Below are positions 29,246 through 59,338 of a DNA stretch of 64,000 bases, piece after piece. Both the position numbers and the translations under genes were made by a program. Source of the stretch: a virus (lineage: Duplodnaviria > Heunggongvirae > Uroviricota > Caudoviricetes); the IMG/VR virus record IMGVR_UViG_3300018481_000018, positions 3,759 through 67,758 of that record; one strand, written 5' to 3'. Every line of letters starts with the position of its first letter. Within the stretch, counting starts at the first letter, position 1. The notes beneath the pieces are model-generated. The model made no database searches. It was not told where the DNA came from and saw nothing but the letters and a program-made list of their open reading frames with translations.

Positions 29246-29282
29246 GATGTGCAGGGCAGAGAGTTCCCACGAAGGAGGAATC

Positions 29283-29705
29283 ATGGATCGACTGAAGACG
29301 CTGGTACGTGAGCCAGCGCTGCTGATCGACTTCGTCGAGACGGCCGTCATCATGGTGGTCGCGTTCGGCATTGGGCTGACCGGAGACCAGCAGACCTACA
29401 TCGTGGCGGCCGTGATCGCCGTCCTGGGCCTGTTCAAGGCGTTCGTCACGGAGCCGTTCGCGGTGGCCGCAGTCACCGACGTGGGGCGCGCACTCCTGTG
29501 TCTGGCCATGTCGTTCGGAGTCGGGCTGACGTCAGACCAGATTGCCATCGCGGTGACCGCCCTGGGCGCAGCCACCACCCTTCTGATCTCGTTGCGAGTC
29601 ACCCCGTCGTACGACCCCGTGGTCAGCCCCACCGGTGCCGGCTCTGGCCCCGTGACGGGCAAGGTCGGGATCAGGGCCCAAGGTGCCCCTCCTCAGGGAG
29701 CCTGA
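29283..29705 (+). CDS. Holin (4 predicted TM helices, internal duplication)
   Basis: SD GAAGGAGG; REPALL N-terminus; GIGLTGDQ/GVGLTSDQ duplication; hydrophobic. Confidence 0.65.
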   Translation: MDRLKTLVREPALLIDFVETAVIMVVAFGIGLTGDQQTYIVAAVIAVLGLFKAFVTEPFAVAAVTDVGRALLCLAMSFGVGLTSDQIAIAVTALGAATTLLISLRVTPSYDPVVSPTGAGSGPVTGKVGIRAQGAPPQGA

Positions 29706-30132
29706 GACGACTGCGGACGGACGTCCGAACCTTCGCGGGGGATTCTTCGTGAAGGTCTATGTGCTGATGGCGGCCCTCGCCATGGGCATGTCGGGGGCGT
29801 TTATCGTGGGCGGTGAGGCTCGGTTCTCTTCACCGAGCTTCACCGTTCCCGCACAGCTGGTCCAGGCACTGCCGTTCGGCTCAAACGTGGCGTGGGGAAC
29901 GTTCTTCTTCTGCTATGCCATAGCGCTCATCTATACGCTCGGTCGGTCGGGTGCGATCCATGTACTGCGGTTCGGCATCGCGTTGTACTTGTTCTTGGCG
30001 ATCAGCTTCGGAGGCTCGGTCGTAGTTGACACCAAGGCGGCGGCGAGTGGGGCCATCACCTACATTGCCATCGCTACGCTCCATCTGTTCCTTCAGGACC
30101 ACCTCTCGAGCCGAGGTTGGGAGAGGTGCTGA
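29683..30132 (+). CDS. Multi-TM membrane protein of the lysis cassette
   Basis: Four hydrophobic segments; the true start may be GTG 29749. Confidence 0.6.
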   Translation: MPLLREPETTADGRPNLRGGFFVKVYVLMAALAMGMSGAFIVGGEARFSSPSFTVPAQLVQALPFGSNVAWGTFFFCYAIALIYTLGRSGAIHVLRFGIALYLFLAISFGGSVVVDTKAAASGAITYIAIATLHLFLQDHLSSRGWERC

Positions 30133-30572
30133 ACGTGTCTCCTACGCGGGATCCGCTGACCGGGATTCCTTCTTCTCGACACCCGTTTCAGTTCTGGGCC
30201 ATGATCGCCATGGCCCTCAGTGGCGCGAGCAACTTCTTCCTTCCTGGCAGCGAGATCCTTCAAGAGGGCCTCGATCCACTCATGCACAAGGTGTGGGCAC
30301 TGACGCTCATGCTGTCCAGCCTGCTGGTCATGGTGGCGGCGTTCTGGCGAGACCGGATCACGGGCTTGCTGATGGAGCGTGCCGGGCTGTTCACCCTGGG
30401 TACGATCACCCCGGCGTACATCATCATCGTGACCACACTTTTGAGCTTCAGCTCGGGTGCGATCGGGATCGCTCTGACCGGTTCGATCGGAATCGCCTCG
30501 TTGTGGCGGGTGCGTCACATCAACAAGGAGCTCAAGACCCTTCGGATCATGATTGCGAGGGACTTCGAGTGA
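30126..30572 (+). CDS. Multi-TM membrane protein of the lysis cassette (RHPFQ motif)
   Basis: SD GAGAGG; four hydrophobic segments. Confidence 0.6.
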   Translation: MLNVSPTRDPLTGIPSSRHPFQFWAMIAMALSGASNFFLPGSEILQEGLDPLMHKVWALTLMLSSLLVMVAAFWRDRITGLLMERAGLFTLGTITPAYIIIVTTLLSFSSGAIGIALTGSIGIASLWRVRHINKELKTLRIMIARDFE

Positions 30573-43482: not shown

Positions 43483-45378
43483 GTGCCGAAGCCGAGTGGG
43501 GTGATCCCCCAGATCCTGGCTCTGGCGAGCACGCCTTCCGGCAACCCGCCAGCAGGCGCGTTGTTCCTGTACTTCAAGAGTGATGGCCTGCTCTACAGCA
43601 AGAACTCCTCGGGCGTCGAGGCGGCCGTTGACCAGGGCGGTGGTGGTGGTGCTGCGGTGCAGACCAGCGCGCCGTCCTCACCTCCCACAGGATCGCTCTG
43701 GCTGGACACTGATGAGGAGCCGGCCGCCGTCACCAACCTGGTGACGACCGACACGACCCAGACGATTACCGGGCAGAAGACGTTCGGCGATGGGTTCGGC
43801 GTCACCAACGCCGACTTCGGCGTCTACCTCGGGTCTGGTGGTGAGGGCGAAGGGTTCTTCGTCTACGCCCAGGATGCGTCTGTCGGCAACCCCGCCAGGA
43901 CCGCCACTCTTACGTTGCAGAGCTCTCGGTGGAGCGGGTCTTTCGTGGAGCCGGTTCCCGTTCAGATCTACCCAGATCCCGCTACGGGCGTGTTTACAAT
44001 CTCCGCTCCAGGCGTCGCGGGCTACACCTTCAATTCCATCGGGCTGACGGGCGCGACCCAAGCCAGCCGCTACGTTGGTGCAACCACCAGCGGCGCGCCC
44101 GGGTCGGGCACTTTCGCGACGGGCGATTTCGTCATTGCCCGCAACGGCAAGCTCTGGATCTGCACTTCAGGCGGTAGCCCAGGAACCTGGGCCGACCCCA
44201 CGGTGCATAACCACGATGCGACCTACCAGCCTCTCGATGGCGACCTGACGTCCATCGCTGCCCTGACTACCACGTCGTACGGGCGCACCTTCTTGACACT
44301 GGCCGACCAGGCCGCGCTCATGGCGCTCGTGCAGGCTTCCTCGGAGACCGCTCAGGGCAAGATCGAGCTCGCTACGCAGGCCGAGACGAATACCGGCACT
44401 GATGACGCGCGGGCCATCACGCCGCTCAAGTTCCAGACTCGGCTCGCGGCGTACGCGCAGCCGCTCGACTCTGACCTGACCTCGATTGCCGCGCTGACCA
44501 CTACGTCATATGGACGGGCGTTTCTATCTTTGGCGGACCAGGCGGCCTTGCTGGCGTTGCTTCCCACCAGCTTCTCGCGGACGACTCTTGCTGCGAGTGG
44601 ACTGACGGGCGCGACTTCGGCCAGCCGCTATGTCGGCGCGACAGCTAGTGGCGCACCTGGCTCGGGAACATTCGCGGTGGGCGATTTCGTAGTCGCGCAG
44701 AACGGCAAGATCTGGGTCTGCACCTCGGCGGGCTCTCCGGGCACGTGGGCCGACGCCGCAGCGACGCCGGCCAACATGATGACCACGAACACCTCGCAGT
44801 CCATCACGGCTGGCGTGAAGACGTTCTCGGCGGGGCAGTTGCTGATGACCAGCAGTGTGGCGAGCAACGCGGAGCCGTACTCGGATGCCAATCCGCCTCA
44901 GACGCTCGTCCATACCGAGACGACCGCGCCCTCAACTCCGGCGTCTGGGTACGGGGTCACCTACGTCAAGAGCTCTGACAGCCTGCCCTACTTCAAGAAC
45001 GACGGGGGCACTGAGTACCTGCTGGCGCATGCGATTGAGCCGTACACCTTCTCGGTCACCGGGGCCCTGACCACGCAAACAGGCAAGTCCAGGATCTATC
45101 TCGAGGGCAACTACATCTTCGAGACGTGTCGAGCGGCGGTGAACACCGCTCCGACTGGCGCAACGATCCTGGTGGACGTGAACAAGAATGGGACGACCAT
45201 CTATACCACCCAGTCTGCGCGGCCGACGATCGCGATCTCGGGTTTCAGCGCGACCGGCAACAGCCCGGCGGTCACCACCTTCGCCTCAGGTGATTACATC
45301 ACCGTCGACGTCGACCAGATCGGGTCTACGATCGCCGGCTCGGATTTGACGGTGACCATCCGGTTGCGGAGGGTCTGA
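43483..45378 (+). CDS. Tail-fibre-like protein with A-B-C-B-A module order, 631 aa
   Basis: Duplicated GLTGAT.ASRYVGAT..GAPGSGTF and QPLD.DLTSIAALTTTSYGR modules flanking ASETAQGKIELATQAET. Confidence 0.7.
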   Translation: MPKPSGVIPQILALASTPSGNPPAGALFLYFKSDGLLYSKNSSGVEAAVDQGGGGGAAVQTSAPSSPPTGSLWLDTDEEPAAVTNLVTTDTTQTITGQKTFGDGFGVTNADFGVYLGSGGEGEGFFVYAQDASVGNPARTATLTLQSSRWSGSFVEPVPVQIYPDPATGVFTISAPGVAGYTFNSIGLTGATQASRYVGATTSGAPGSGTFATGDFVIARNGKLWICTSGGSPGTWADPTVHNHDATYQPLDGDLTSIAALTTTSYGRTFLTLADQAALMALVQASSETAQGKIELATQAETNTGTDDARAITPLKFQTRLAAYAQPLDSDLTSIAALTTTSYGRAFLSLADQAALLALLPTSFSRTTLAASGLTGATSASRYVGATASGAPGSGTFAVGDFVVAQNGKIWVCTSAGSPGTWADAAATPANMMTTNTSQSITAGVKTFSAGQLLMTSSVASNAEPYSDANPPQTLVHTETTAPSTPASGYGVTYVKSSDSLPYFKNDGGTEYLLAHAIEPYTFSVTGALTTQTGKSRIYLEGNYIFETCRAAVNTAPTGATILVDVNKNGTTIYTTQSARPTIAISGFSATGNSPAVTTFASGDYITVDVDQIGSTIAGSDLTVTIRLRRV

Positions 45379-45626
45379 TGTGGAAGGTCCGAGCTGACTG
45401 CACCTACACGTCGTCCGGGAACAAGAGCACGCGACAGGCGGCTGCTCAGGGCGTGGTCGACAGCTACCCGGCCGCGATTGTCTCCGACGACCCGGGTGCC
45501 AGGTTCCCGGGTGGACTGATCTCGCATTCGTCGACTCGGTTCACTGTCTCCTATGACTTCGTGATGTCGGCCGTCACGGCGTCGGCCAGGAATAGCACTC
45601 TGCTTTCGATTCATGAGGCGGTCTGA
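45378..45626 (+). CDS. Small fibre-associated protein, 82 aa
   Basis: TGATG coupling at both ends. Confidence 0.55.
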   Translation: MWKVRADCTYTSSGNKSTRQAAAQGVVDSYPAAIVSDDPGARFPGGLISHSSTRFTVSYDFVMSAVTASARNSTLLSIHEAV

Positions 45627-47278
45627 TGGCCGTCGTCTACGGTGCCGCTGGGTCGGTCGTCTACTCCACCGGCAATCCGTCTCCGACGTATCCGTCTGGC
45701 GGAACGGCGAGCCGCTTGTATGGATACCTCATGGTGGTGGGGACCAAGCCCGACACCACTCCCGCTTCCACGCCGTCTGGATGGACCCTCCTCGGAGCCG
45801 TCGCGGGAGGGGAGGGCAGTACGGGAATTGACCAGGGCCCGACCCGGCTCGGAGTGTTCTACCGGGAATCGCTGAGCATTCTGTCTGGGTCAGTCAGCGT
45901 GACCGTGACTGGGAACAACATCTCGTGGGCTGTGATCCATCGGTGGGAATGCTTGACCACTGAGGCGTTCGATTGGGGCATCTCTACCGGGGCGGACGTG
46001 GCTGGCGGCACGGGGTTCTCGGCGGTCACCTCGAGCGTCGCGGCAGGTTTCTTCGCCACCGGCGACGGCCTCATGGTCGCCAACTGCTTCCCTACCGATA
46101 CCAATCCCACCTGGGGCACTCCGACTCTGACCGCTCAGGGTGGTGGCACCATCACACTGGGAACGGTCACGGTGCGCACGACCGCAACCAGCTCCAGCGG
46201 TCAGGACATCGGTGGCCGGGTCGTCTCCGCGATGCCTACCGCCAGCAGTGTGGGGGCTGGCACCTTGACCTACGCCGCGACCCTTTCGGGCACCACGACT
46301 AACGCTCACGGTCCGGTGACCGTGATCCGAGTTCGCGCCGCCATTCCTCCCCCGAACGCGCCGACCGGGTTGACCGCGACCGGCACGAGCACGACGCAGA
46401 TCGACGTGTCGTGGAACTCGGTCGCTGGTGCGACCGACTACAACCTGGAGCGCTCGGCGGATGGCGCTACGGGCTGGGCGCGCATCAACGGCTCCGCGCC
46501 TCAGACCGGTACGTCGTACAACGACACCGGGCGCACGGCGTCGACCACCTATTACTACCGGGTGTCTGTAACCACCTCTGCCGGTACGTCGGCAGTCTCT
46601 TCGACCATTCCTGGCCGGACGTTCAATGTGCCCCCATACTCTGAGGACTTCGAGGAATACATCGGTCTTGCGGTGGGCACATGGGGACCTGACTGGACGA
46701 TCAGTGCGCAATCGCCCAGCACTCTCAACTCGTTCTTGCTGGGGGACGTGAGTGGATGGGCGAGTATCTACCCCGACGACTCAGGTGCCGCGCAGGGTCT
46801 GCTCAAGGTGACCACCCAGACCGACCAGGGCGTGCTTCTCTTGTTGCAGCTCGGTGCCAGTGCAGCCTTGCGGGTCTCTCTTCGCGCTTCGGGCGGTTGG
46901 ACCGCTGGACCACCACCCGTGAATGGCTACTACGCCCATCTCAGCACGACTGATGCCAACACAATCTCGAAGATGGTCAGTAGCTCGGGCTCTGACTTGA
47001 CCCCCTCGGGGACGACGTGGACGAATCCGACCGCTAGCACCGACTACAAGTTCCGCATGGAAGTGGTTGGGACGACCATCCGAACTCGGCTCTGGGCGGC
47101 GGCCGGTGGCGAACCTGGTACTTGGCGTACAGCCACCGACGTCAGCATCAGCTCGGGGGTCCTAGGACTCTCGGTCGGGTCTGGTCCTGGCGTGGACATC
47201 AGCGAGATCGAGTACTACGTCCCCGCCGGTGGTGGTGGCGAGCCGGCTTCGTTCGCGGCTTTCGGGGTTCCGCTCTGA
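45626..47278 (+). CDS. Adhesin-like protein with fibronectin type III and lectin-like domains, 550 aa
   Basis: PNAPTGLTATGTSTTQIDVSW..YNLERS..TYYYRVSV FN3 pattern at about 46345-46610. Confidence 0.7.
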   Translation: MAVVYGAAGSVVYSTGNPSPTYPSGGTASRLYGYLMVVGTKPDTTPASTPSGWTLLGAVAGGEGSTGIDQGPTRLGVFYRESLSILSGSVSVTVTGNNISWAVIHRWECLTTEAFDWGISTGADVAGGTGFSAVTSSVAAGFFATGDGLMVANCFPTDTNPTWGTPTLTAQGGGTITLGTVTVRTTATSSSGQDIGGRVVSAMPTASSVGAGTLTYAATLSGTTTNAHGPVTVIRVRAAIPPPNAPTGLTATGTSTTQIDVSWNSVAGATDYNLERSADGATGWARINGSAPQTGTSYNDTGRTASTTYYYRVSVTTSAGTSAVSSTIPGRTFNVPPYSEDFEEYIGLAVGTWGPDWTISAQSPSTLNSFLLGDVSGWASIYPDDSGAAQGLLKVTTQTDQGVLLLLQLGASAALRVSLRASGGWTAGPPPVNGYYAHLSTTDANTISKMVSSSGSDLTPSGTTWTNPTASTDYKFRMEVVGTTIRTRLWAAAGGEPGTWRTATDVSISSGVLGLSVGSGPGVDISEIEYYVPAGGGGEPASFAAFGVPL

Positions 47279-47302
47279 GATGATGGTTAGAGGAGGATTC
47301 AG

Positions 47303-47692
47303 ATGAGTGTCCTGAAGGTCAACGCGGGCACTTCCGGCTCGCCGGAGTGGGTGCCGATCGTCGCCCTGCCTCAGTACTTCCCGCGCGTGACATCCACCGC
47401 GAGCACCGCCACGCTGACCGTCAACGTGGCCACCACTGACCTCGCGGCCCTGACCGCGCAGGCGGCCGGCCTCACGGTGGCGGCACCTACCGGCACGGCT
47501 CAGGATGGTCAGTCCTTGCTGATCCGGATCAAGGACAACGGCACAGCTCGAGCGATCTCCTGGAACGCGGCCTTCCGGGGCATCGGGGTGGTGCTGCCGA
47601 CTTCGACGGTCGTCTCCAAGTTGATGTACGTGGCAAGCAAGTGGAACAGCGCGGACTCCAAGTGGGACGTTCTCGCTGTCGGTCAGGAATGA
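47303..47692 (+). CDS. Fibre tip/accessory protein, 129 aa
   Basis: PTG..DGQ.LLIRIKDNGTARAISW..KWDVLAV motif common in phage fibre proteins. Confidence 0.6.
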   Translation: MSVLKVNAGTSGSPEWVPIVALPQYFPRVTSTASTATLTVNVATTDLAALTAQAAGLTVAAPTGTAQDGQSLLIRIKDNGTARAISWNAAFRGIGVVLPTSTVVSKLMYVASKWNSADSKWDVLAVGQE

Positions 47693-47699
47693 GGATGCT

Positions 47700-48143
47700 A
47701 TGGCCGTGACGATCATGAATGTCTCGCGGGGCATGTGGGGCTACTACGCCTCCTTGCCTGCCGCGAACGATGCGATCCTGGCCGTCCCGCTGGAGTCGTC
47801 CGGACTGGAGGGCACCTCCACGCTCCAGGACTACGACACTCTGAGTGCGCTGCTTGCTGGGGCTAGCAACGAGCAGACCACGATGGCGCGCAAGGTGGTC
47901 ACCGGCGTCACCTACTCGTTGGACGACAGTGGGAACAAGCGGGTCTTCGACTTCGATGATGTCGAATGGACTAGCGCGAGTGGCTCAGGGGTCGGCGGGC
48001 TGTTGATCTGCTACGACCCGGACACGACTGGCGGCAGCGACTCGGACATCATCCCGATGTTCTTCGATGACTCGTTCGTGAATGCCTCGCCCACCGGCAC
48101 GGTCACCTATGCCGTGCACGCGTCCGGGCTCGCCGAAGCGTGA
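47700..48143 (+). CDS. Small tail/head fibre adaptor-type protein, 147 aa
   Basis: DYDTLSALLAG..NE..MARK..FDFDDVEWT..LLICYDPDT motif seen in actinophage structural proteins. Confidence 0.55.
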   Translation: MAVTIMNVSRGMWGYYASLPAANDAILAVPLESSGLEGTSTLQDYDTLSALLAGASNEQTTMARKVVTGVTYSLDDSGNKRVFDFDDVEWTSASGSGVGGLLICYDPDTTGGSDSDIIPMFFDDSFVNASPTGTVTYAVHASGLAEA

Positions 48144-48170
48144 TCACATACTTCGGGGAGGGAGGTTGAT

Positions 48171-50039
48171 GTGTCGATCACTCCAGGCACGATCAGCAAT
48201 GAGGATGGCGTCAGCACGGTTCAGACGGAGATCCTGATCGACGCGCCTTCGGGCATCACGACCAGCCACTATCTCCTGGCGCTCGTGCAGGGCAACAACA
48301 ACACCGCGCCGCCCGACCAAGATGGCTGGACGACATTGCGCGGCTCCAATGGCACGGGGTTGTACCAGGCCGTCTATGGCCGGTTTCACGATGGGTCGGC
48401 TGACTACCTGTTCGACGGCTTCCCGAGTGCGCGACTGTCCGGGCAGATCATGCCCTACCTTGGGGTCGACCCGACCACGCCGATCGACGTCACGATCGGC
48501 GCTTCCTCTGCTGGCACCACTGACTTCGCGTGGGACAACATCACCCCGGTCACCGCAGGGGCCTATATCGTCGGCCTGGTCTCGGTGCTTCAGAGCCTCA
48601 CCACTACCTATGACATCGCCTCGCACAACTTCGACAACCAGCGCGGCACGACTCTGACGCCTTCGGGTGGCGCGGACGCCGGTGGGGCGATCTTCGACAA
48701 GGCGTGGTTCTCTGGCGTGTTCAGTCCGTCAGTGACTTCGACGGAGGCAACCACCCGCACCAGGGCCTGCGTCCTTGCGCTGCGACCCGCCGAGCTTGCC
48801 GAGGGCGGTGGTCACTACGCCGAGACGATCACGGTTCGCTCTGGCATGAGCCTTGTGGACGGCATTCCAAACGAGCAGCCAAACTCGTCGTTCGAGAGCG
48901 GGACGTCGGACTGGGGCGACCAGACCGGACCGGCGGCCACCTTGGACTTCCCTTCCACGGCGGGGGCTCCTGACGGCACCTATGCAGCTCGCCTGTCGGT
49001 CAGCGGCACGGGCACGCCCGCCTTCCGAGCCACTGGTGCCAACCGTATTCCCATCACCAGCGGGATGTGGGGCGATTACCTGACGGCCTACGGTCAGTTC
49101 CAGTGGGGCACGGGAACTCCTGGCGCGGCTCGGATAGATGTGCAGTTCATGGATGTCAGCGATTCGGTGATTCAGACGAACATCGGTTTGCAGTTCTTCG
49201 CTGCTACCGACTCCTGGCTGAGGGTGCAGCAGAACAACAACCAGATCCCGACCGACGCGGCGTGGGGACTCATCCGGATTGCCATGCCGGACGCTGTTCC
49301 CGGAGTCTCGCTCTACACCGACTGCCTGCATGCCGTCATCGGAGCCGACATCCCTGACCTGGGGCCACATCCGGCTTGGGTGGAGTACGGTACCTCGACC
49401 GTCACTGGCGGGCACTACGTCGAGACGGTCACGACTCGCTCCGGAACCGTGGGGCCTGCGGGACCTGCGATCAACCGGCAGCGGAACGCCTCGTTCGAGT
49501 CGGGCCTCGAGTACTGGGACACGTCCGGGCCGGCCGCGATCTCGTTCCCGACCGACACGTACCAGCAGCTCTATGGCGCGCGTGTGGCCAGGCTCCGGTC
49601 GACAAGCGATTCCGCCACGCCGCAGATGCGGTCCACCGGCGAGAACCGAGTCGCGATTGACGAGTCCGAGTACGGGCTGTACCTCAATGCGTATGCGAAC
49701 TTCCGGTGGGAGTCCGGCACGCCCAAGGGGTGTCGGATGGATGTTCAATTTCTCGACGAGACCGACACGGTGGTGCAGAGCAACATCGGAACGGAGTTCA
49801 CCCCAAGCGCCGGGTCGTGGGTCAGGATCCTCAACAACGACAACGTGATCCCGGATCCGTGCCACGAGATGCGTCTCCGCTTCGTCATCATCGACGCGCA
49901 GACCAATGACTCGATACTGATTGAGGACCTGTATGTCGACGTCGGGACGAACATCCACAACGATGGGCCGCATCCCGAGTGGGCCCTTCACTCCGAGGAC
50001 TTTCCCTATGCCGCAGGTCGTTTCTTTCAACTCACGTGA
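48171..50039 (+). CDS. Adhesin with two tandem carbohydrate-binding-like (CBM4/9-type) modules, 622 aa
   Basis: NSSFESGTSDW and NASFESGLEYW modules repeated at 600-bp spacing. Confidence 0.65.
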   Translation: MSITPGTISNEDGVSTVQTEILIDAPSGITTSHYLLALVQGNNNTAPPDQDGWTTLRGSNGTGLYQAVYGRFHDGSADYLFDGFPSARLSGQIMPYLGVDPTTPIDVTIGASSAGTTDFAWDNITPVTAGAYIVGLVSVLQSLTTTYDIASHNFDNQRGTTLTPSGGADAGGAIFDKAWFSGVFSPSVTSTEATTRTRACVLALRPAELAEGGGHYAETITVRSGMSLVDGIPNEQPNSSFESGTSDWGDQTGPAATLDFPSTAGAPDGTYAARLSVSGTGTPAFRATGANRIPITSGMWGDYLTAYGQFQWGTGTPGAARIDVQFMDVSDSVIQTNIGLQFFAATDSWLRVQQNNNQIPTDAAWGLIRIAMPDAVPGVSLYTDCLHAVIGADIPDLGPHPAWVEYGTSTVTGGHYVETVTTRSGTVGPAGPAINRQRNASFESGLEYWDTSGPAAISFPTDTYQQLYGARVARLRSTSDSATPQMRSTGENRVAIDESEYGLYLNAYANFRWESGTPKGCRMDVQFLDETDTVVQSNIGTEFTPSAGSWVRILNNDNVIPDPCHEMRLRFVIIDAQTNDSILIEDLYVDVGTNIHNDGPHPEWALHSEDFPYAAGRFFQLT

Positions 50040-50053
50040 GGAGAAACAGATAC

Positions 50054-50560
50054 ATGTCCAAGTTCATCCCCACTCTTGACCTCTATGCGCGCATGGTGCT
50101 TCGAGAGGTGGGTGTGCCGACGGGCTTGGTCACGATCTTGAACGACGAAACCCAGGAGATTCCGGGCGCAGCCGGCAAGTACGGCCTTCGAGAGAGTACG
50201 CCGATCTCGGAGTCCTTCTGTCAACATGTTGTGGCGAACAACGCGCCGTTGATCATTCCGGACGCTCGTCTGGACTCGCGCGTGTGCGACAAGCCTTCGG
50301 TCACGAAGGGTGCCGTGGTTGCTTACATGGGGTATCCGTTGCGGAACTCCAAGGGCAAGACCATCGGGTCAGTCTGCGCTATCGACTCCGAGCCGCGCTC
50401 GTGGTCGGATCCTGAGCTCGAGGCGTTACGGGATGTGGCGCATGCGACGACGGCGGAGGTCATCAGGCGCGAGGTCCAATGGCGTCTGGAGTGGGCCTGG
50501 ACGATTGCTGCGGCGTTCATCGTGGTCACGCTGATCATGGGGATCATCCTCTTTGCGTGA
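50054..50560 (+). CDS. Stand-alone GAF domain protein with C-terminal TM helix, 168 aa
   Basis: SFCQHVV..PLIIPDARLD.R..AYMGYPL..GKTIGSVCAIDSEPRSW..ELEALRDVA GAF pattern; WAWTIAAAFIVVTLIMGIILFA tail; SD GAGGAG. Confidence 0.8.
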   Translation: MSKFIPTLDLYARMVLREVGVPTGLVTILNDETQEIPGAAGKYGLRESTPISESFCQHVVANNAPLIIPDARLDSRVCDKPSVTKGAVVAYMGYPLRNSKGKTIGSVCAIDSEPRSWSDPELEALRDVAHATTAEVIRREVQWRLEWAWTIAAAFIVVTLIMGIILFA

Positions 50561-50860
50561 GGGGGGCCCTGGTGGCTGGCTCTCGCCTGACGGCCGATCC
50601 TGTCCACAACCTCGGCTCTCATCACCACCTGGGCCCCACAGACACGATCGCCTCGGATCTGACGACCGTGAGGTGTCGCAGACCGCCTCTCGGCTCCACA
50701 GGGCCCCCATTTCGGCCCAGCTTCCCCGGTCACCAGCGGAAAGGTCCTCATCAGTGTCAGTCGGTGGACGGTCTGACGACCCTGCCCTCTCCTCAACCCA
50801 GGCTTCCCTGAGCGCTGTCTTCCCTGCACGCTGCACGTGAGGAGGAGGGCAGCTTGAACG
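50561..50860. ncRNA. Candidate structured RNA region with imperfect hammerhead-like core on the minus strand
   Basis: Long stems 50562-50575/50696-50708 and 50782-50795/50838-50852; minus-strand GUC-stem-CUGAUGA-G...C-GAAA. Confidence 0.25.
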
Positions 50861-50920
50861 TTCGGAATGGTACACGACACGGCTGACGCCTCACGCGTGA
50901 CACGTGACGCGTTAGCGGGA

Positions 50921-50971
50921 AACAAAAAAAGGGCCCCTCCCCGCGCGCGTACTGCGCACAGAGAGGGGCCC
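50921..50971 (-). terminator. Intrinsic terminator of the leftward early operon
   Basis: GGGCCCCTC/GAGGGGCCC stem with a T7 run on the minus strand. Confidence 0.75.
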
Positions 50972-51117
50972 TAGTACCTGACATCCGCGTGGTCGTACCA
51001 CTGGTTAGGTTGCTGCCACCCGGCCTCCCCCGTCAGCCTTCCCCCGCGCCATGCGGCTTCCTCTGACGGGATCGTTGGAGAGGTGCAGCCCCGCCTGTCA
51101 GGGGGCGGAGTCTGGGT

Positions 51118-52735: not shown

Positions 52736-53908
52736 TCACCTCCTGAAGTCATAGACCTTGTCGGTCACAATGAGGTCCTTATCCTCGGGCCCCTTGATGA
52801 ATGGTGCGATCCAGATTCGGCGGCGCTCCTTGCGGCCGACGCCGCACGCCTGCCAGCGCCAGTGTCCACGCACCACCCAGCGGTGCGACCACTCCACCAT
52901 GGATTCGCCCTCTTGGCGGTTGGCGTTCTCGTGCCGACGGAGTGCGATGACGGTGACCTTGCCGGGGATGCCAACTCGGGCTGCGCGCTTGCGTGAGGCT
53001 CGGTTGGGCAGGGTCTCCTCGGTGACGACGATCGTCTGGTTGAGCAAGAGGAACAGGGCGTGCATGTACCTGAAGAGGTTGGTTCCCTCTTGGGGCTCGT
53101 CAGACTGGTTGCCGCCCGGGTCGAGGCTCTTGTCTTGATTGGCCACGAACATTGCTTGCTGCTCGGCCGACGGCTTGACCAGGTTCGGGCCTAGGGACAT
53201 GTCCTTGACGTAGTTCGTGAAGTGAACGGTCATCCAGCGTCCGACATCTTGCATGGCGTCGCCCATCTCGGGGACGGATGACGCCTGCACCACGAAGTCC
53301 AGGTAGTTCTCGTCCGGCTCGGTCCAGGCGTCGTTGAAGAACGTCATGGCCAGTGCCGGCCGGTCTTCCGGCTGGGCCGTCAGGGCGGTCACGATCGACT
53401 CCTCGCCCTTGGGTCGTGCGCCGTACGAGGAGGGCCCCCACACCGCCCAGTGAACGAGCATGTTGTAGCCCCGGATGTCCTTGACGTGGATGGGCTGGTC
53501 GAATCGCACGATCCCGCAACCGGTGGGGGCCAGCGAGGGGTCGCAGAGGTCCTCCTCGTCCAGGCTCATGGCGGCGTGCTCAAGTAGCGTGCCCATCTCG
53601 CGGGTGACTCGGAAGGCGTAGGCCGCCTTGACGTAGTTCTCCAAGCCCTTTACCCAGGCTCCACCGCGAGGGAACGCGTCCATGAGATTCATGCTGAAGG
53701 CCCCGTCCTTGGGGAAGCCCTCGTTGAGCAGGTCTTCGATGGCGTCGTCGAGGTCCAGCGCGCGGGGATTGCTGTCGACCCACGTGTTGACTGAGCCGAC
53801 GGCGGTAGTGGTGTGCGCTCCGATGGCGACGAAGGCTCGGAACTGGCCATTCTCAGTCAGTCGGTCCAGGAGTTCGGCCTGGGCAGTGATGATGTCGGAC
53901 GGCTGCAT
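52736..53908 (-). CDS. Conserved phage protein with WVVRGHWRWQ C-terminal motif, 390 aa
   Basis: HRWVVRGHWRWQACG..RIWIAPFIKGP motif widespread in actinophages; function unknown. Confidence 0.7.
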   Translation of the reverse strand: MQPSDIITAQAELLDRLTENGQFRAFVAIGAHTTTAVGSVNTWVDSNPRALDLDDAIEDLLNEGFPKDGAFSMNLMDAFPRGGAWVKGLENYVKAAYAFRVTREMGTLLEHAAMSLDEEDLCDPSLAPTGCGIVRFDQPIHVKDIRGYNMLVHWAVWGPSSYGARPKGEESIVTALTAQPEDRPALAMTFFNDAWTEPDENYLDFVVQASSVPEMGDAMQDVGRWMTVHFTNYVKDMSLGPNLVKPSAEQQAMFVANQDKSLDPGGNQSDEPQEGTNLFRYMHALFLLLNQTIVVTEETLPNRASRKRAARVGIPGKVTVIALRRHENANRQEGESMVEWSHRWVVRGHWRWQACGVGRKERRRIWIAPFIKGPEDKDLIVTDKVYDFRR

Positions 53909-54237
53909 CAGTCTTCCCTCCTGTGGTGGCTGAGGAACTCGCGATCGAGGCTGAAGATCTTCTCGTGGTCCTGCTCACTCCGGGCGATGGTCGGGTTGAT
54001 CGGCAGCTTGTGGACGTTCGCTCGGTAGATGGCGGCTCCGGCGCACTGACGCATGCCGGGGTCGTCCCATTGCTCGTTGGTGATCGTCTTGTGGCAGGCG
54101 ATACCGCCTTCGCCGTGGACTGTTGTGAGCCACTCCTCGGGAGAGTGGGGTCCGAGCCAGCCCGGCGCGCTCACGCGTCTCCAGGGGCAGTCGTTGCACG
54201 GCGTCTTAGTCGCCTCGGGGTACTCGGGAAGTTCCAT
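53908..54237 (-). CDS. Cys-rich protein (PCNDCPW..ACH..QCAG; DUF6283-like)
   Basis: Cys pattern shared with 58910-59338. Confidence 0.6.
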   Translation of the reverse strand: MELPEYPEATKTPCNDCPWRRVSAPGWLGPHSPEEWLTTVHGEGGIACHKTITNEQWDDPGMRQCAGAAIYRANVHKLPINPTIARSEQDHEKIFSLDREFLSHHRRED

Positions 54238-54457
54238 CAACTACCTCTCTGATTGAGGCGATAGCGGCTTCGATCGACGCTTTGGTGGCTTGCATCTCCC
54301 GGTTGTTGGGCGGCTGTGCTCCGTACTTCGTGTACTTGGCGTAACACGGAATGCATAGGAGCGCGCCCTCCCCCACCCAGTCCACTTCGAGCATGCCGGA
54401 CGTGCCGTCGAGGTACGTCCGGCACTCGAAGCAGACGGGTGTTGGATCTCCTCTCAC
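54206..54457 (-). CDS. Zn-finger hypothetical protein (CFEC..CIPC)
   Basis: GTGA overlap at 54454-54457. Confidence 0.5.
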   Translation of the reverse strand: MRGDPTPVCFECRTYLDGTSGMLEVDWVGEGALLCIPCYAKYTKYGAQPPNNREMQATKASIEAAIASIREVVDGTSRVPRGD

Positions 54458-58695: not shown

Positions 58696-58913
58696 CCGAG
58701 GTCCATGGGGTTCTGATCCTCGCGGTTCATCAGCTCCAACCGGAGGGCTGCGCCGATGGCGTCGAGATCCCACAGCCATCCCTGGAGGCGCTGTTTGGAC
58801 TCCTGCTCGAGGACTGGATACTTCGGCTTCCCTGCTACGGTCATGCCGAGCGTGTAGAGGGTCGCCGAGGCGCTGTCGATGGCGCGTTCGAGGTTCTCCT
58901 GGGGAAGGTTCAT
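58692..58913 (-). CDS. Hypothetical protein, 73 aa
   Basis: SD GGAG; ATGA overlap. Confidence 0.55.
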   Translation of the reverse strand: MNLPQENLERAIDSASATLYTLGMTVAGKPKYPVLEQESKQRLQGWLWDLDAIGAALRLELMNREDQNPMDLG

Positions 58914-59338
58914 GTGTTGTCTCCGATCTTCTGAATGAGCTTGGCGACCCGCTTTCTGGCTGCCGGGCTCGGTTCGTGGTACTCGGCCATCCCGTGATCG
59001 TGGGCCTCCTGCCCGGAGTCGAACAGTGGGACGGGCGTCTCGTAGTCGCAGACCTCCTCGTAGTTCTCCGGGCTGATCCACCCTGAGCTGACGCCGATTC
59101 GCATAGCGGCATTGGTGGCCATGTCGTGGCAGCCCACCCACCCGGCACATAGCCGGCCATCCTGCTGGTGGCAGTAGAAGAAGCCGCGATGCGCGCCGGC
59201 CTCGATCTGCTCCCAGGTATCTAGGTCGTATCTCGGTAGCTTGACGTACTCCGATTCGTCCCAGATGCCTGAAGGCACGTCCCTGCGGTACGGACAAGTG
59301 CCGCAGGGACGTGCCGCTGGGAGGATGCTGTCGCTCAC
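58910..59338 (-). CDS. DUF6283-like Cys-rich protein
   Basis: PCGTCPYRRDVPSGIW..EY.KL..YD..FYCHQ..LCAGWVGCH. Confidence 0.65.
   Translation of the reverse strand: MSDSILPAARPCGTCPYRRDVPSGIWDESEYVKLPRYDLDTWEQIEAGAHRGFFYCHQQDGRLCAGWVGCHDMATNAAMRIGVSSGWISPENYEEVCDYETPVPLFDSGQEAHDHGMAEYHEPSPAARKRVAKLIQKIGDNT

Follow-up and report, generated by a model that had tools for sequence, protein, structure and literature searches.

The window, by which we mean the whole 64,000-nt stretch of DNA analysed here, comprises bases 3759-67758 of a 144,413-bp IMG/VR virus record (98% complete according to CheckV), has a G+C content of 64%, and derives from a 144-kb soil phage of actinobacteria. A run of plus-strand genes extends from ~41.8 kb to 50.04 kb, with PHROG matches to head-decoration, tail-fibre, or tail families, or with none; those at 43483-50039 have tail-fibre or tail matches or none, and all lie on the same strand with small gaps between them. 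The last of these, at 48171-50039 on the plus strand, encodes a 622-aa tail-fibre-like protein and ends in a TGA stop codon at 50037-50039. It is followed by the gene that is the subject of this work, which together with its translation signal and the terminator to its right is located as follows.

50038-50043, plus strand: Shine-Dalgarno motif GAGGAG, read from the sequence, with a 10-nt spacer to the ATG at 50054
50054-50560, plus strand: open reading frame of the GAF-plus-membrane-anchor gene, encoding a protein of 168 aa (P0001)
50930-50972, minus strand: strong intrinsic terminator with a 19-bp stem and a T run, which ends the convergent minus-strand operon

The start at 50054 is backed by the homologue on contig L002, which begins at the same residue, and the gene is translationally close-coupled to its upstream neighbour; no promoter-like site was found upstream of it. 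It is the final gene of a late rightward structural/tail-fibre operon. A sequence-only reading of this DNA had described a Shine-Dalgarno sequence overlapping the stop codon of the last adhesin gene, in a gene that closes a late operon, and both descriptions are borne out by the overlap of the GAGGAG motif with the TGA and by the position of the gene at the end of the plus-strand tail-fibre run. To the right of the gene, ~370 bp without a credible ORF lead to the minus-strand terminator and then to a block of convergent minus-strand genes of replication type, among them those for a metallophosphoesterase, a tyrosine recombinase, and a RuvB-like ATPase. The GAF gene therefore sits where the late module meets the leftward replication module, a type of junction at which variable genes gather. 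The same leftward block contains two minus-strand genes of the DUF6283 type, at 53908-54240 and 58910-59338 (one with a strong match, E 1.5e-33, the other with a weak one, E 2.6e-4), which are probably diverged paralogues.

[quoted passage not shown]

50072-50473, plus strand: GAF domain, residues ~7-140 (Pfam, a 47-sequence alignment, the structural model, and superposition on 4zmu with Z 21.0)
50408-50491, plus strand: last GAF helix and juxtamembrane helix, residues 119-146 (alignment, model, and structure search)
50492-50557, plus strand: C-terminal transmembrane helix, residues ~147-168 (sequence and comparison of homologues)

Pfam assigns residues 7-131 to the GAF family PF01590 (E 8.1e-13, 49.5 bits against a cut-off of 22.4), with a further match to GAF_2 (PF13185; E 5.7e-8, 33.5 bits against a cut-off of 28.6), and no domains other than GAF families were found in P0001 with Pfam at E values up to 1. 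Two unannotated PHROG families with a GAF domain, phrog_14602 (E 4e-28) and phrog_27950, also match the protein, and the NCBIfam library returned nothing meaningful for it. The AlphaFold2 model of P0001, built with the 47-sequence alignment (pLDDT 95.6, pTM 0.88), has a canonical three-layer α/β GAF core and a single unbroken helix, residues 119-167, which joins the last GAF helix to the membrane helix. The 19 residues 150-168 have a mean Kyte-Doolittle hydropathy of 2.7 and are preceded by an aromatic WAW belt and by Arg138, Arg139, and Arg144; no residues follow the hydrophobic stretch and no signal peptide is present. Since the hydrophobic helix lies at the very end of a protein without a signal peptide, P0001 is predicted to be tail-anchored in the inner membrane, and its GAF domain should face the cytoplasm. 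The single C-terminal hydrophobic helix and the basic residues before it recur in the phage homologues P0002, P0003, and P0005. Pfam, AlphaFold2, and hydropathy thus agree with the earlier description of a complete GAF domain that has no output domain and is followed by one C-terminal transmembrane helix. A homodimer prediction with two copies of the protein (alignment A3) gave a median score of 0.30 against a mark of 0.42.

Searches of structures and of cellular proteins relate P0001 to the sensor domains of bacterial signalling enzymes. Among PDB entries the best match is 4ZMU, the GAF domain of the Pseudomonas aeruginosa diguanylate cyclase Dcsbis (PA2771), with a Foldseek E value of 2e-12 and 30% identity; chain 4zmu_A superposes with a VIA Z score of 21.0 (rmsd 2.4 over 149 residues, 28-30% identity), other GAF structures reaching Z ~15-16. 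Dcsbis also has the cysteines of the SFCQ and CAID motifs, and by sequence and fold the P0001 domain is placed in the Dcsbis-type sensor-GAF subfamily. By calorimetry, the Dcsbis GAF domain showed no binding of cAMP or cGMP; its NKFDE motif is degenerate, its pocket is large and hydrophobic, and it dimerises via a four-helix bundle of GAF helices (PMC4937426). In GAF-containing phosphatases, kinases, and cyclases, output is controlled by regulated dimerisation, which acts through the linker helix (PMC12143880). In the ESM Atlas structure search, P0001 superposes over its full 168 residues on SpoIIE phosphatases, kinases, and cyclases of Actinomycetota, where it covers the GAF domain and the linker helix (TM by query 0.84-0.91); residues 119-146 thus match the signalling or linker helix of the cellular sensors, whose distal part the membrane helix represents.

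The subfamily is very large, with about 24,000 representative clusters at E below 1e-3 in an exhaustive HMMER search. When the ten best cellular matches were scanned for domains, SpoIIE was found in 6/10, HisKA in 1/10, PAS in 1/10, and GAF domains only in 2/10; GGDEF proteins also occur among the cellular relatives. The earlier statement that this GAF subtype heads PP2C/SpoIIE, GGDEF, and histidine kinase sensors accordingly stands, SpoIIE or HisKA being present in 7/10 of the best matches. The nearest cellular proteins, at most 50-52% identical to P0001, come from soil Actinomycetota (Nocardioides, Actinoplanes, Modestobacter, Geodermatophilus, and Streptomyces), and identity to the N-terminal GAF domains of Actinomycetota sensors is 45-52% across the whole domain and linker. 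Like these GAF-GAF-SpoIIE (PP2C/PPM), GAF-HisKA, and GAF-GGDEF proteins, P0001 carries the invariant residues of the subfamily, with the cysteines of SFCQ and CAID among them, and ends its GAF domain in a long C-terminal helix. In contrast to them, it has no output domain, the distal half of its linker spans the membrane, and its gene belongs to a late phage operon. A membrane helix after the GAF linker was absent from all cellular relatives inspected, which continue into another domain, and 185,579 species genomes yielded only multidomain cellular GAF proteins at 50% identity or less, and no GAF-plus-anchor protein.

Comparison of the window with L002 indicates which parts of the protein are maintained. 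In a codon alignment of the two genes, 45 codons have silent changes only and 38 carry an amino-acid change, amounting to ~68 changes at roughly 130 silent sites and ~52 at roughly 374 replacement sites. These counts, made by hand and hence rough, and not derived from a codon model, give a dS of ~0.9, a dN of ~0.15, and a dN/dS of roughly 0.15-0.25; by this estimate the gene is under purifying selection. Replacements cluster in surface loops 28-32 and 42-45 and in the membrane core, and the substitutions between homologues in the membrane helix are all hydrophobic for hydrophobic. The best-conserved part of the protein is residues 131-151, identical in the three close homologues except at position 141. 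A strict juxtamembrane segment followed by a membrane core that is free to vary as long as it stays hydrophobic fits transmission rather than a passive anchor. Within the GAF domain, 11/11 family-invariant columns of the 47-sequence alignment are kept (Gln34, Gly41, Ser54, Cys56, Val59, Tyr91, Gly93, Pro95, Gly105, Cys108, and Trp117). Because all of the invariant residues, both cysteines among them, are retained, P0001 probably retains ligand sensing. At the nucleotide level, codons 133-150 (50450-50503) differ between the window and L002 at 4 positions in 54 nt, the whole gene being ~24% divergent; silent sites are nearly fixed in this segment, which adjoins the conserved, RNA-like region downstream.

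The combination of a GAF domain with a C-terminal anchor is very rare. Only four distinct sequences of this design were found in 1.8-5.8 billion proteins, namely P0001 itself and the following three.

P0002, on contigs L002 and L003: 79% identity to P0001
P0003, on contig L087: 74% identity to P0001, cut at its N terminus by the contig end
P0005, on L004 and L005 (109-kb ENA contig): 48% identity to P0001

The reading frame is intact in four contigs. No GAF-plus-anchor relative was present in 50,697 phage GenBank records, in which the sole match was a GAF-PAS ORF of at least 659 aa (L088; MT838032.1, 1931-5323); that record is an 'UNVERIFIED Bacteriophage sp.' scaffold from human faeces and looks bacterial rather than phage. 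IMG/VR scans with peptide patterns of P0001 and of the 47-sequence alignment likewise gave no further relative of this design, and a search with the C-terminal 49 residues alone returned three close relatives and nothing else. The gene is also absent from five distantly related phages that share with the window a gene of the tail region encoding a 147-aa protein (47700-48143). Its rarity and its absence from these five phages indicate an accessory gene and not a core lysis component. The sequence-only reading had supposed that this is not a standard phage gene, and the searches of phage databases agree; given also that the GAF subtype heads cellular sensors, its proposal of a captured host sensor domain is well founded as regards host origin.

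P0005 is closer to cellular GAF domains (55% identity to P0153 and P0019) than to P0001 (48%). The phage proteins nevertheless share residues that are missing from the cellular consensus, namely Gly24 in PTGLV, Pro81, Tyr94 in GYP, Lys102, and an A-T-x-A-E-V run at 131-136. Judged from these sequences, the phage proteins may form one old family in which the P0001 clade has evolved fast, or else the anchor was gained on two occasions; if two phage lineages did gain it independently, as the closeness of P0005 to cellular GAF domains would allow, the design would be a case of convergent evolution.

The gene neighbourhoods of the homologues have the same general character. In L002, the GAF gene directly follows homologues of the window genes 45626-47278 (74% identity over the first 242 residues) and 47303-47692 (129 aa, 67% identity), and the window has two extra genes, 47700-48143 and 48171-50039, where L002 has none. 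The fibre set therefore varies between the window and L002 and the GAF gene stays last, which points to a distal fibre/adhesin set that varies in cassette-like fashion. The extra genes encode the 147-aa protein, which belongs to phrog_26662, and the 622-aa protein, which has two internal repeats of ~190 aa and no family match. Contig L004 is phage-like, with many small ORFs without families and two endolysin-type genes; for a 311-aa protein encoded on it, homologues without functional annotation occur in Bacillus phages and in a mangrove-soil Caudovirales genome. There the GAF gene, with a convergent gene beyond it, ends a rightward run of virion-type and endolysin-like genes. The preceding gene, whose stop overlaps the GAF start, encodes a 48-aa protein with two hydrophobic helices (L004:9855-10001, also present in L005). 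This protein is a possible membrane partner; no homologue was found in the window's phage. The only family match of the 48-aa protein is a weak one, to DUF5699. Downstream synteny is not shared, the gene after the L004 GAF gene being unrelated to the metallophosphoesterase of the window. That gene, L004:10612-11403 on the minus strand, directly downstream of the GAF-anchor gene, encodes a surface protein in which a Pro-Thr repeat is combined with an Excalibur calcium-binding domain and an LPXTG cell-wall anchor, by these sequence features a host-type sortase substrate on a phage contig.

The DNA between the stop codon of the GAF gene and the terminator of the convergent operon is itself conserved, and contains two smaller elements.

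50561-50930, no strand assigned: conserved non-coding stretch, ~84% identical to L002 outside indels and also found in L087
50563-50637, plus strand: long-range stem of 13 bp, rich in GC, in which 50563-50575 pair with 50625-50637; it begins 3 nt past the stop codon
50857-50869, minus strand: copy of a promoter-like motif of this phage (CATTCCGAACGTT), pointing leftwards at the 3' end of the GAF gene and kept in L002 and L087

The 370 bp past the stop codon are ~84% identical in the window and L002 outside indels, compared with ~76% for the gene and ~48% for the silent sites of the gene. The indels in this stretch are of 1, 2, 3, and 10 nt, and because they break the frame, a coding function is ruled out for 50561-50930. 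The 13-bp stem has one compensated pair in L087 (C-G to A-U), and possibly marks the end of the late transcript. Single-sequence folds of the stretch gave z of about -2 on either strand; no Rfam family (E up to 1) or tRNA was detected in it, no second copy is present in the phage genome, and none turned up elsewhere when viral and metagenome contigs were scanned for exact patterns. In the hammerhead-like core noted in the stretch, GAAA reads AAAA in L087. This pattern of conservation probably marks an RNA element, which could belong to the late transcript as its 3' end or be transcribed from a small convergent RNA gene.

We looked elsewhere in the phage for functions to which the GAF domain might be connected. 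No SpoIIE, STAS, or HATPase_c_2 (RsbW-type) domain is encoded in the 144-kb genome, which rules out a split sensor with its output encoded elsewhere in the phage. The lysis cassette lies 20 kb from the GAF gene, with a holin at 29247-29705 (phrog_9752, E 3e-16), and the GAF gene is not part of this recognised holin cassette. The lysis region (29247-30572) is unusually rich in membrane proteins, the holin being followed by two overlapping genes for four-helix membrane proteins. PADLOC defence families gave no match to P0001 or P0005 at E values up to 0.1.

We tentatively regard P0001 as a ligand-gated membrane device or switch, expressed late and possibly serving lysis timing, antiholin-like control, or permeabilisation. 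This interpretation ranks first among those considered, as a possibility rather than a probability, because the presumed pocket residues are kept, the gene is late, the GAF helix is continuous with the membrane helix, and SpoIISA and holin T provide precedents. A host-type cytoplasmic GAF sensor would have had its output-coupling helix converted into a membrane-spanning helix, and the protein would be made late, together with the tail fibres. The GAF domain would bind the ligand of its subfamily, probably a hydrophobic compound and, to judge from the one relative tested, neither cAMP nor cGMP; a ligand-dependent change in the pairing of GAF and linker helices would then be passed straight to the membrane helix, so that a membrane event at the end of infection is triggered, delayed, or modulated, whether this be permeabilisation, the timing of lysis, or the control of another membrane protein. 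Such a protein would be expected to bind a ligand, to dimerise, and to act on the membrane or on lysis. In keeping with a late membrane switch, the L002 and L004 homologues also come last, after tail-fibre-like genes in the one and virion and endolysin-like genes in the other. However, the recognisable holin cassette 20 kb away excludes the GAF gene, the family is very rare and absent from the five phages that share the tail gene, and the likeness to SpoIISA and holin T is one of fold and design only, the topology differing from both. Many holins carry charged or strongly polar residues in their membrane helix, and the membrane helix of P0001 is without them. A more specific version, in which a host stress-sensor GAF domain has been turned into a one-piece membrane switch whose signalling helix is itself the effector, forming a metabolite-timed lysis clock or an antiholin, we consider unlikely; if it were true, the phage would read the same metabolite as the host stress phosphatases and use it to time the breaching or sealing of the membrane.

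Ranked second, and rather unlikely, is a dominant-negative decoy, which would form mixed dimers with a host GAF-SpoIIE protein, kinase, or cyclase through the four-helix bundle and hold them inactive at the membrane, thereby blunting a host stress or sigma-factor response. The close relation to Actinomycetota sensor GAF domains over the entire domain and linker (45-52% identity) would permit such mixed dimers, as would the dimerisation of the subfamily through GAF helices (PMC4937426); a sensor truncated before its output is a classical dominant-negative design, and the phage itself encodes no partner of the SpoIIE, STAS, or RsbW type. However, neither the 185,579 species genomes nor the protein collections contain a cellular protein above ~52% identity, so that no specific target of a decoy is evident. 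Host takeover genes are, moreover, usually early, whereas this gene lies in a late operon, and the strict juxtamembrane conservation would be left unexplained. Less probable again, and third in rank, is another late role at the membrane, such as superinfection exclusion or the recruitment of a protein to the membrane, with the GAF domain acting mainly as a protein-binding module. This would suit a rare, accessory protein encoded at the late/replication junction where variable genes gather, and a gene that stays in place as the fibre genes differ between the window and L002. Virtually nothing of P0001 is exposed outside the membrane, however, and exclusion would therefore have to act from the cytoplasmic face; the retention of all family-invariant residues also favours ligand sensing over a scaffold.

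Phage sponge proteins are an established strategy, and a small-molecule sponge, in which the GAF pocket sequesters a host signal such as a defence second messenger, is ranked fourth, as a doubtful reading. The family-invariant, presumed pocket residues are kept, and some GAF domains bind cyclic nucleotides, with 1mc0, 5w10, and 1ykd among the fold matches. A sponge for cAMP or cGMP is nevertheless disfavoured by the closest solved relative, the Dcsbis GAF domain (28-30% identity), which binds neither and in which the NKFDE motif is degenerate and the pocket large and hydrophobic (PMC4937426). A sponge would need neither a membrane anchor nor a conserved juxtamembrane helix, placement in a late operon is atypical for counter-defence, and PADLOC gives no match. 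Of the three functions put forward in the sequence-only reading, the sponge for cyclic nucleotides has lost ground, and a decoy and a lysis-timing sensor are both still candidates. That reading had also allowed for a decaying host fragment, and this possibility, widened here to a neutral remnant whose hydrophobic tail is accidental, is essentially excluded: the missing output domain and the scarcity of homologues would suit a fragment, but the frame is intact in four contigs, dN/dS is ~0.2, changes in the anchor are hydrophobic, the invariant residues are kept, and the same design recurs at 48% identity in a different, 109-kb phage contig. What probability these named readings leave over belongs to something else.

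Sensory input to lysis and other late decisions of phages is well understood in few model systems, among them T4 lysis inhibition and arbitrium-type signalling. If a host stress-sensor domain is indeed wired to a membrane helix in P0001, it would be a very compact coupling of a host metabolite to a membrane event. As a stand-alone GAF protein of 168 residues, P0001 lends itself to ligand fishing more readily than host enzymes of several domains do, and through it the ligand of a very large GAF subfamily (~24,000 representative clusters) could become accessible. Were P0001 instead a decoy, it would show how a phage can use domain mimicry to jam partner-switching or two-component signalling. The rarity of the family limits the general impact unless the mechanism proves to be new.

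Membrane-tethered GAF-like proteins are known on phages and mobile elements, but the architecture of P0001 fits no described family: it is without an output domain, the domain order of SpoIISA is reversed in it, and its topology is opposite to that of holin T. SpoIISA of Bacillus subtilis is a membrane-attached toxin whose GAF fold dimerises via a helical bundle and has a putative effector pocket that is conserved; the intact toxin causes membrane lesions like those of holins (PMC3057836). P0001 resembles SpoIISA (PDB 3O6Q) in the attachment of a cytoplasmic GAF fold to the membrane. In SpoIISA, however, three N-terminal membrane helices precede the GAF domain and there is a dedicated antitoxin, SpoIISB, whereas the helix of P0001 is C-terminal; P0001 has no Pfam match to the SpoIISA family (PF14171), and no small partner gene adjoins the GAF gene.

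Like holin T of phage T4 (PDB 6PX4/6PXE), P0001 would be a late membrane protein of a phage, combining one membrane helix with a globular α/β domain; in holin T, this domain receives the lysis-inhibition signal via the antiholin RI. Foldseek aligns the P0001 model with 6px4_B (E 8e-7, TM 0.56/0.65), and T-type class III holins are found among the viral fold matches (BFVD ranks 5, 10, and 12). In contrast to P0001, with its C-terminal helix and cytoplasmic domain, holin T has an N-terminal helix and a periplasmic globular domain. There is no Pfam (PF11031) or PHROG holin match for P0001, so the resemblance is at the level of the fold; sequence identity is ~11-13% to holin T and 10-13% to holin T and SpoIISA taken together, a likeness of fold and design only. 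In the signal-gated transmembrane effectors of defence systems that use nucleotide signals (Pycsar PycTM, CBASS Cap14/Cap15, and type III CRISPR Cam1), ligand binding to a cytoplasmic domain leads to membrane damage, the same logic as is proposed here for P0001. The ligand-binding folds of these proteins differ from that of P0001, and they serve host defence and are paired with a signal synthase, whereas no synthase gene lies near the GAF gene; P0001 and these effectors are nevertheless alike in that a cytoplasmic domain of small-molecule-binding type is fused to a membrane helix.
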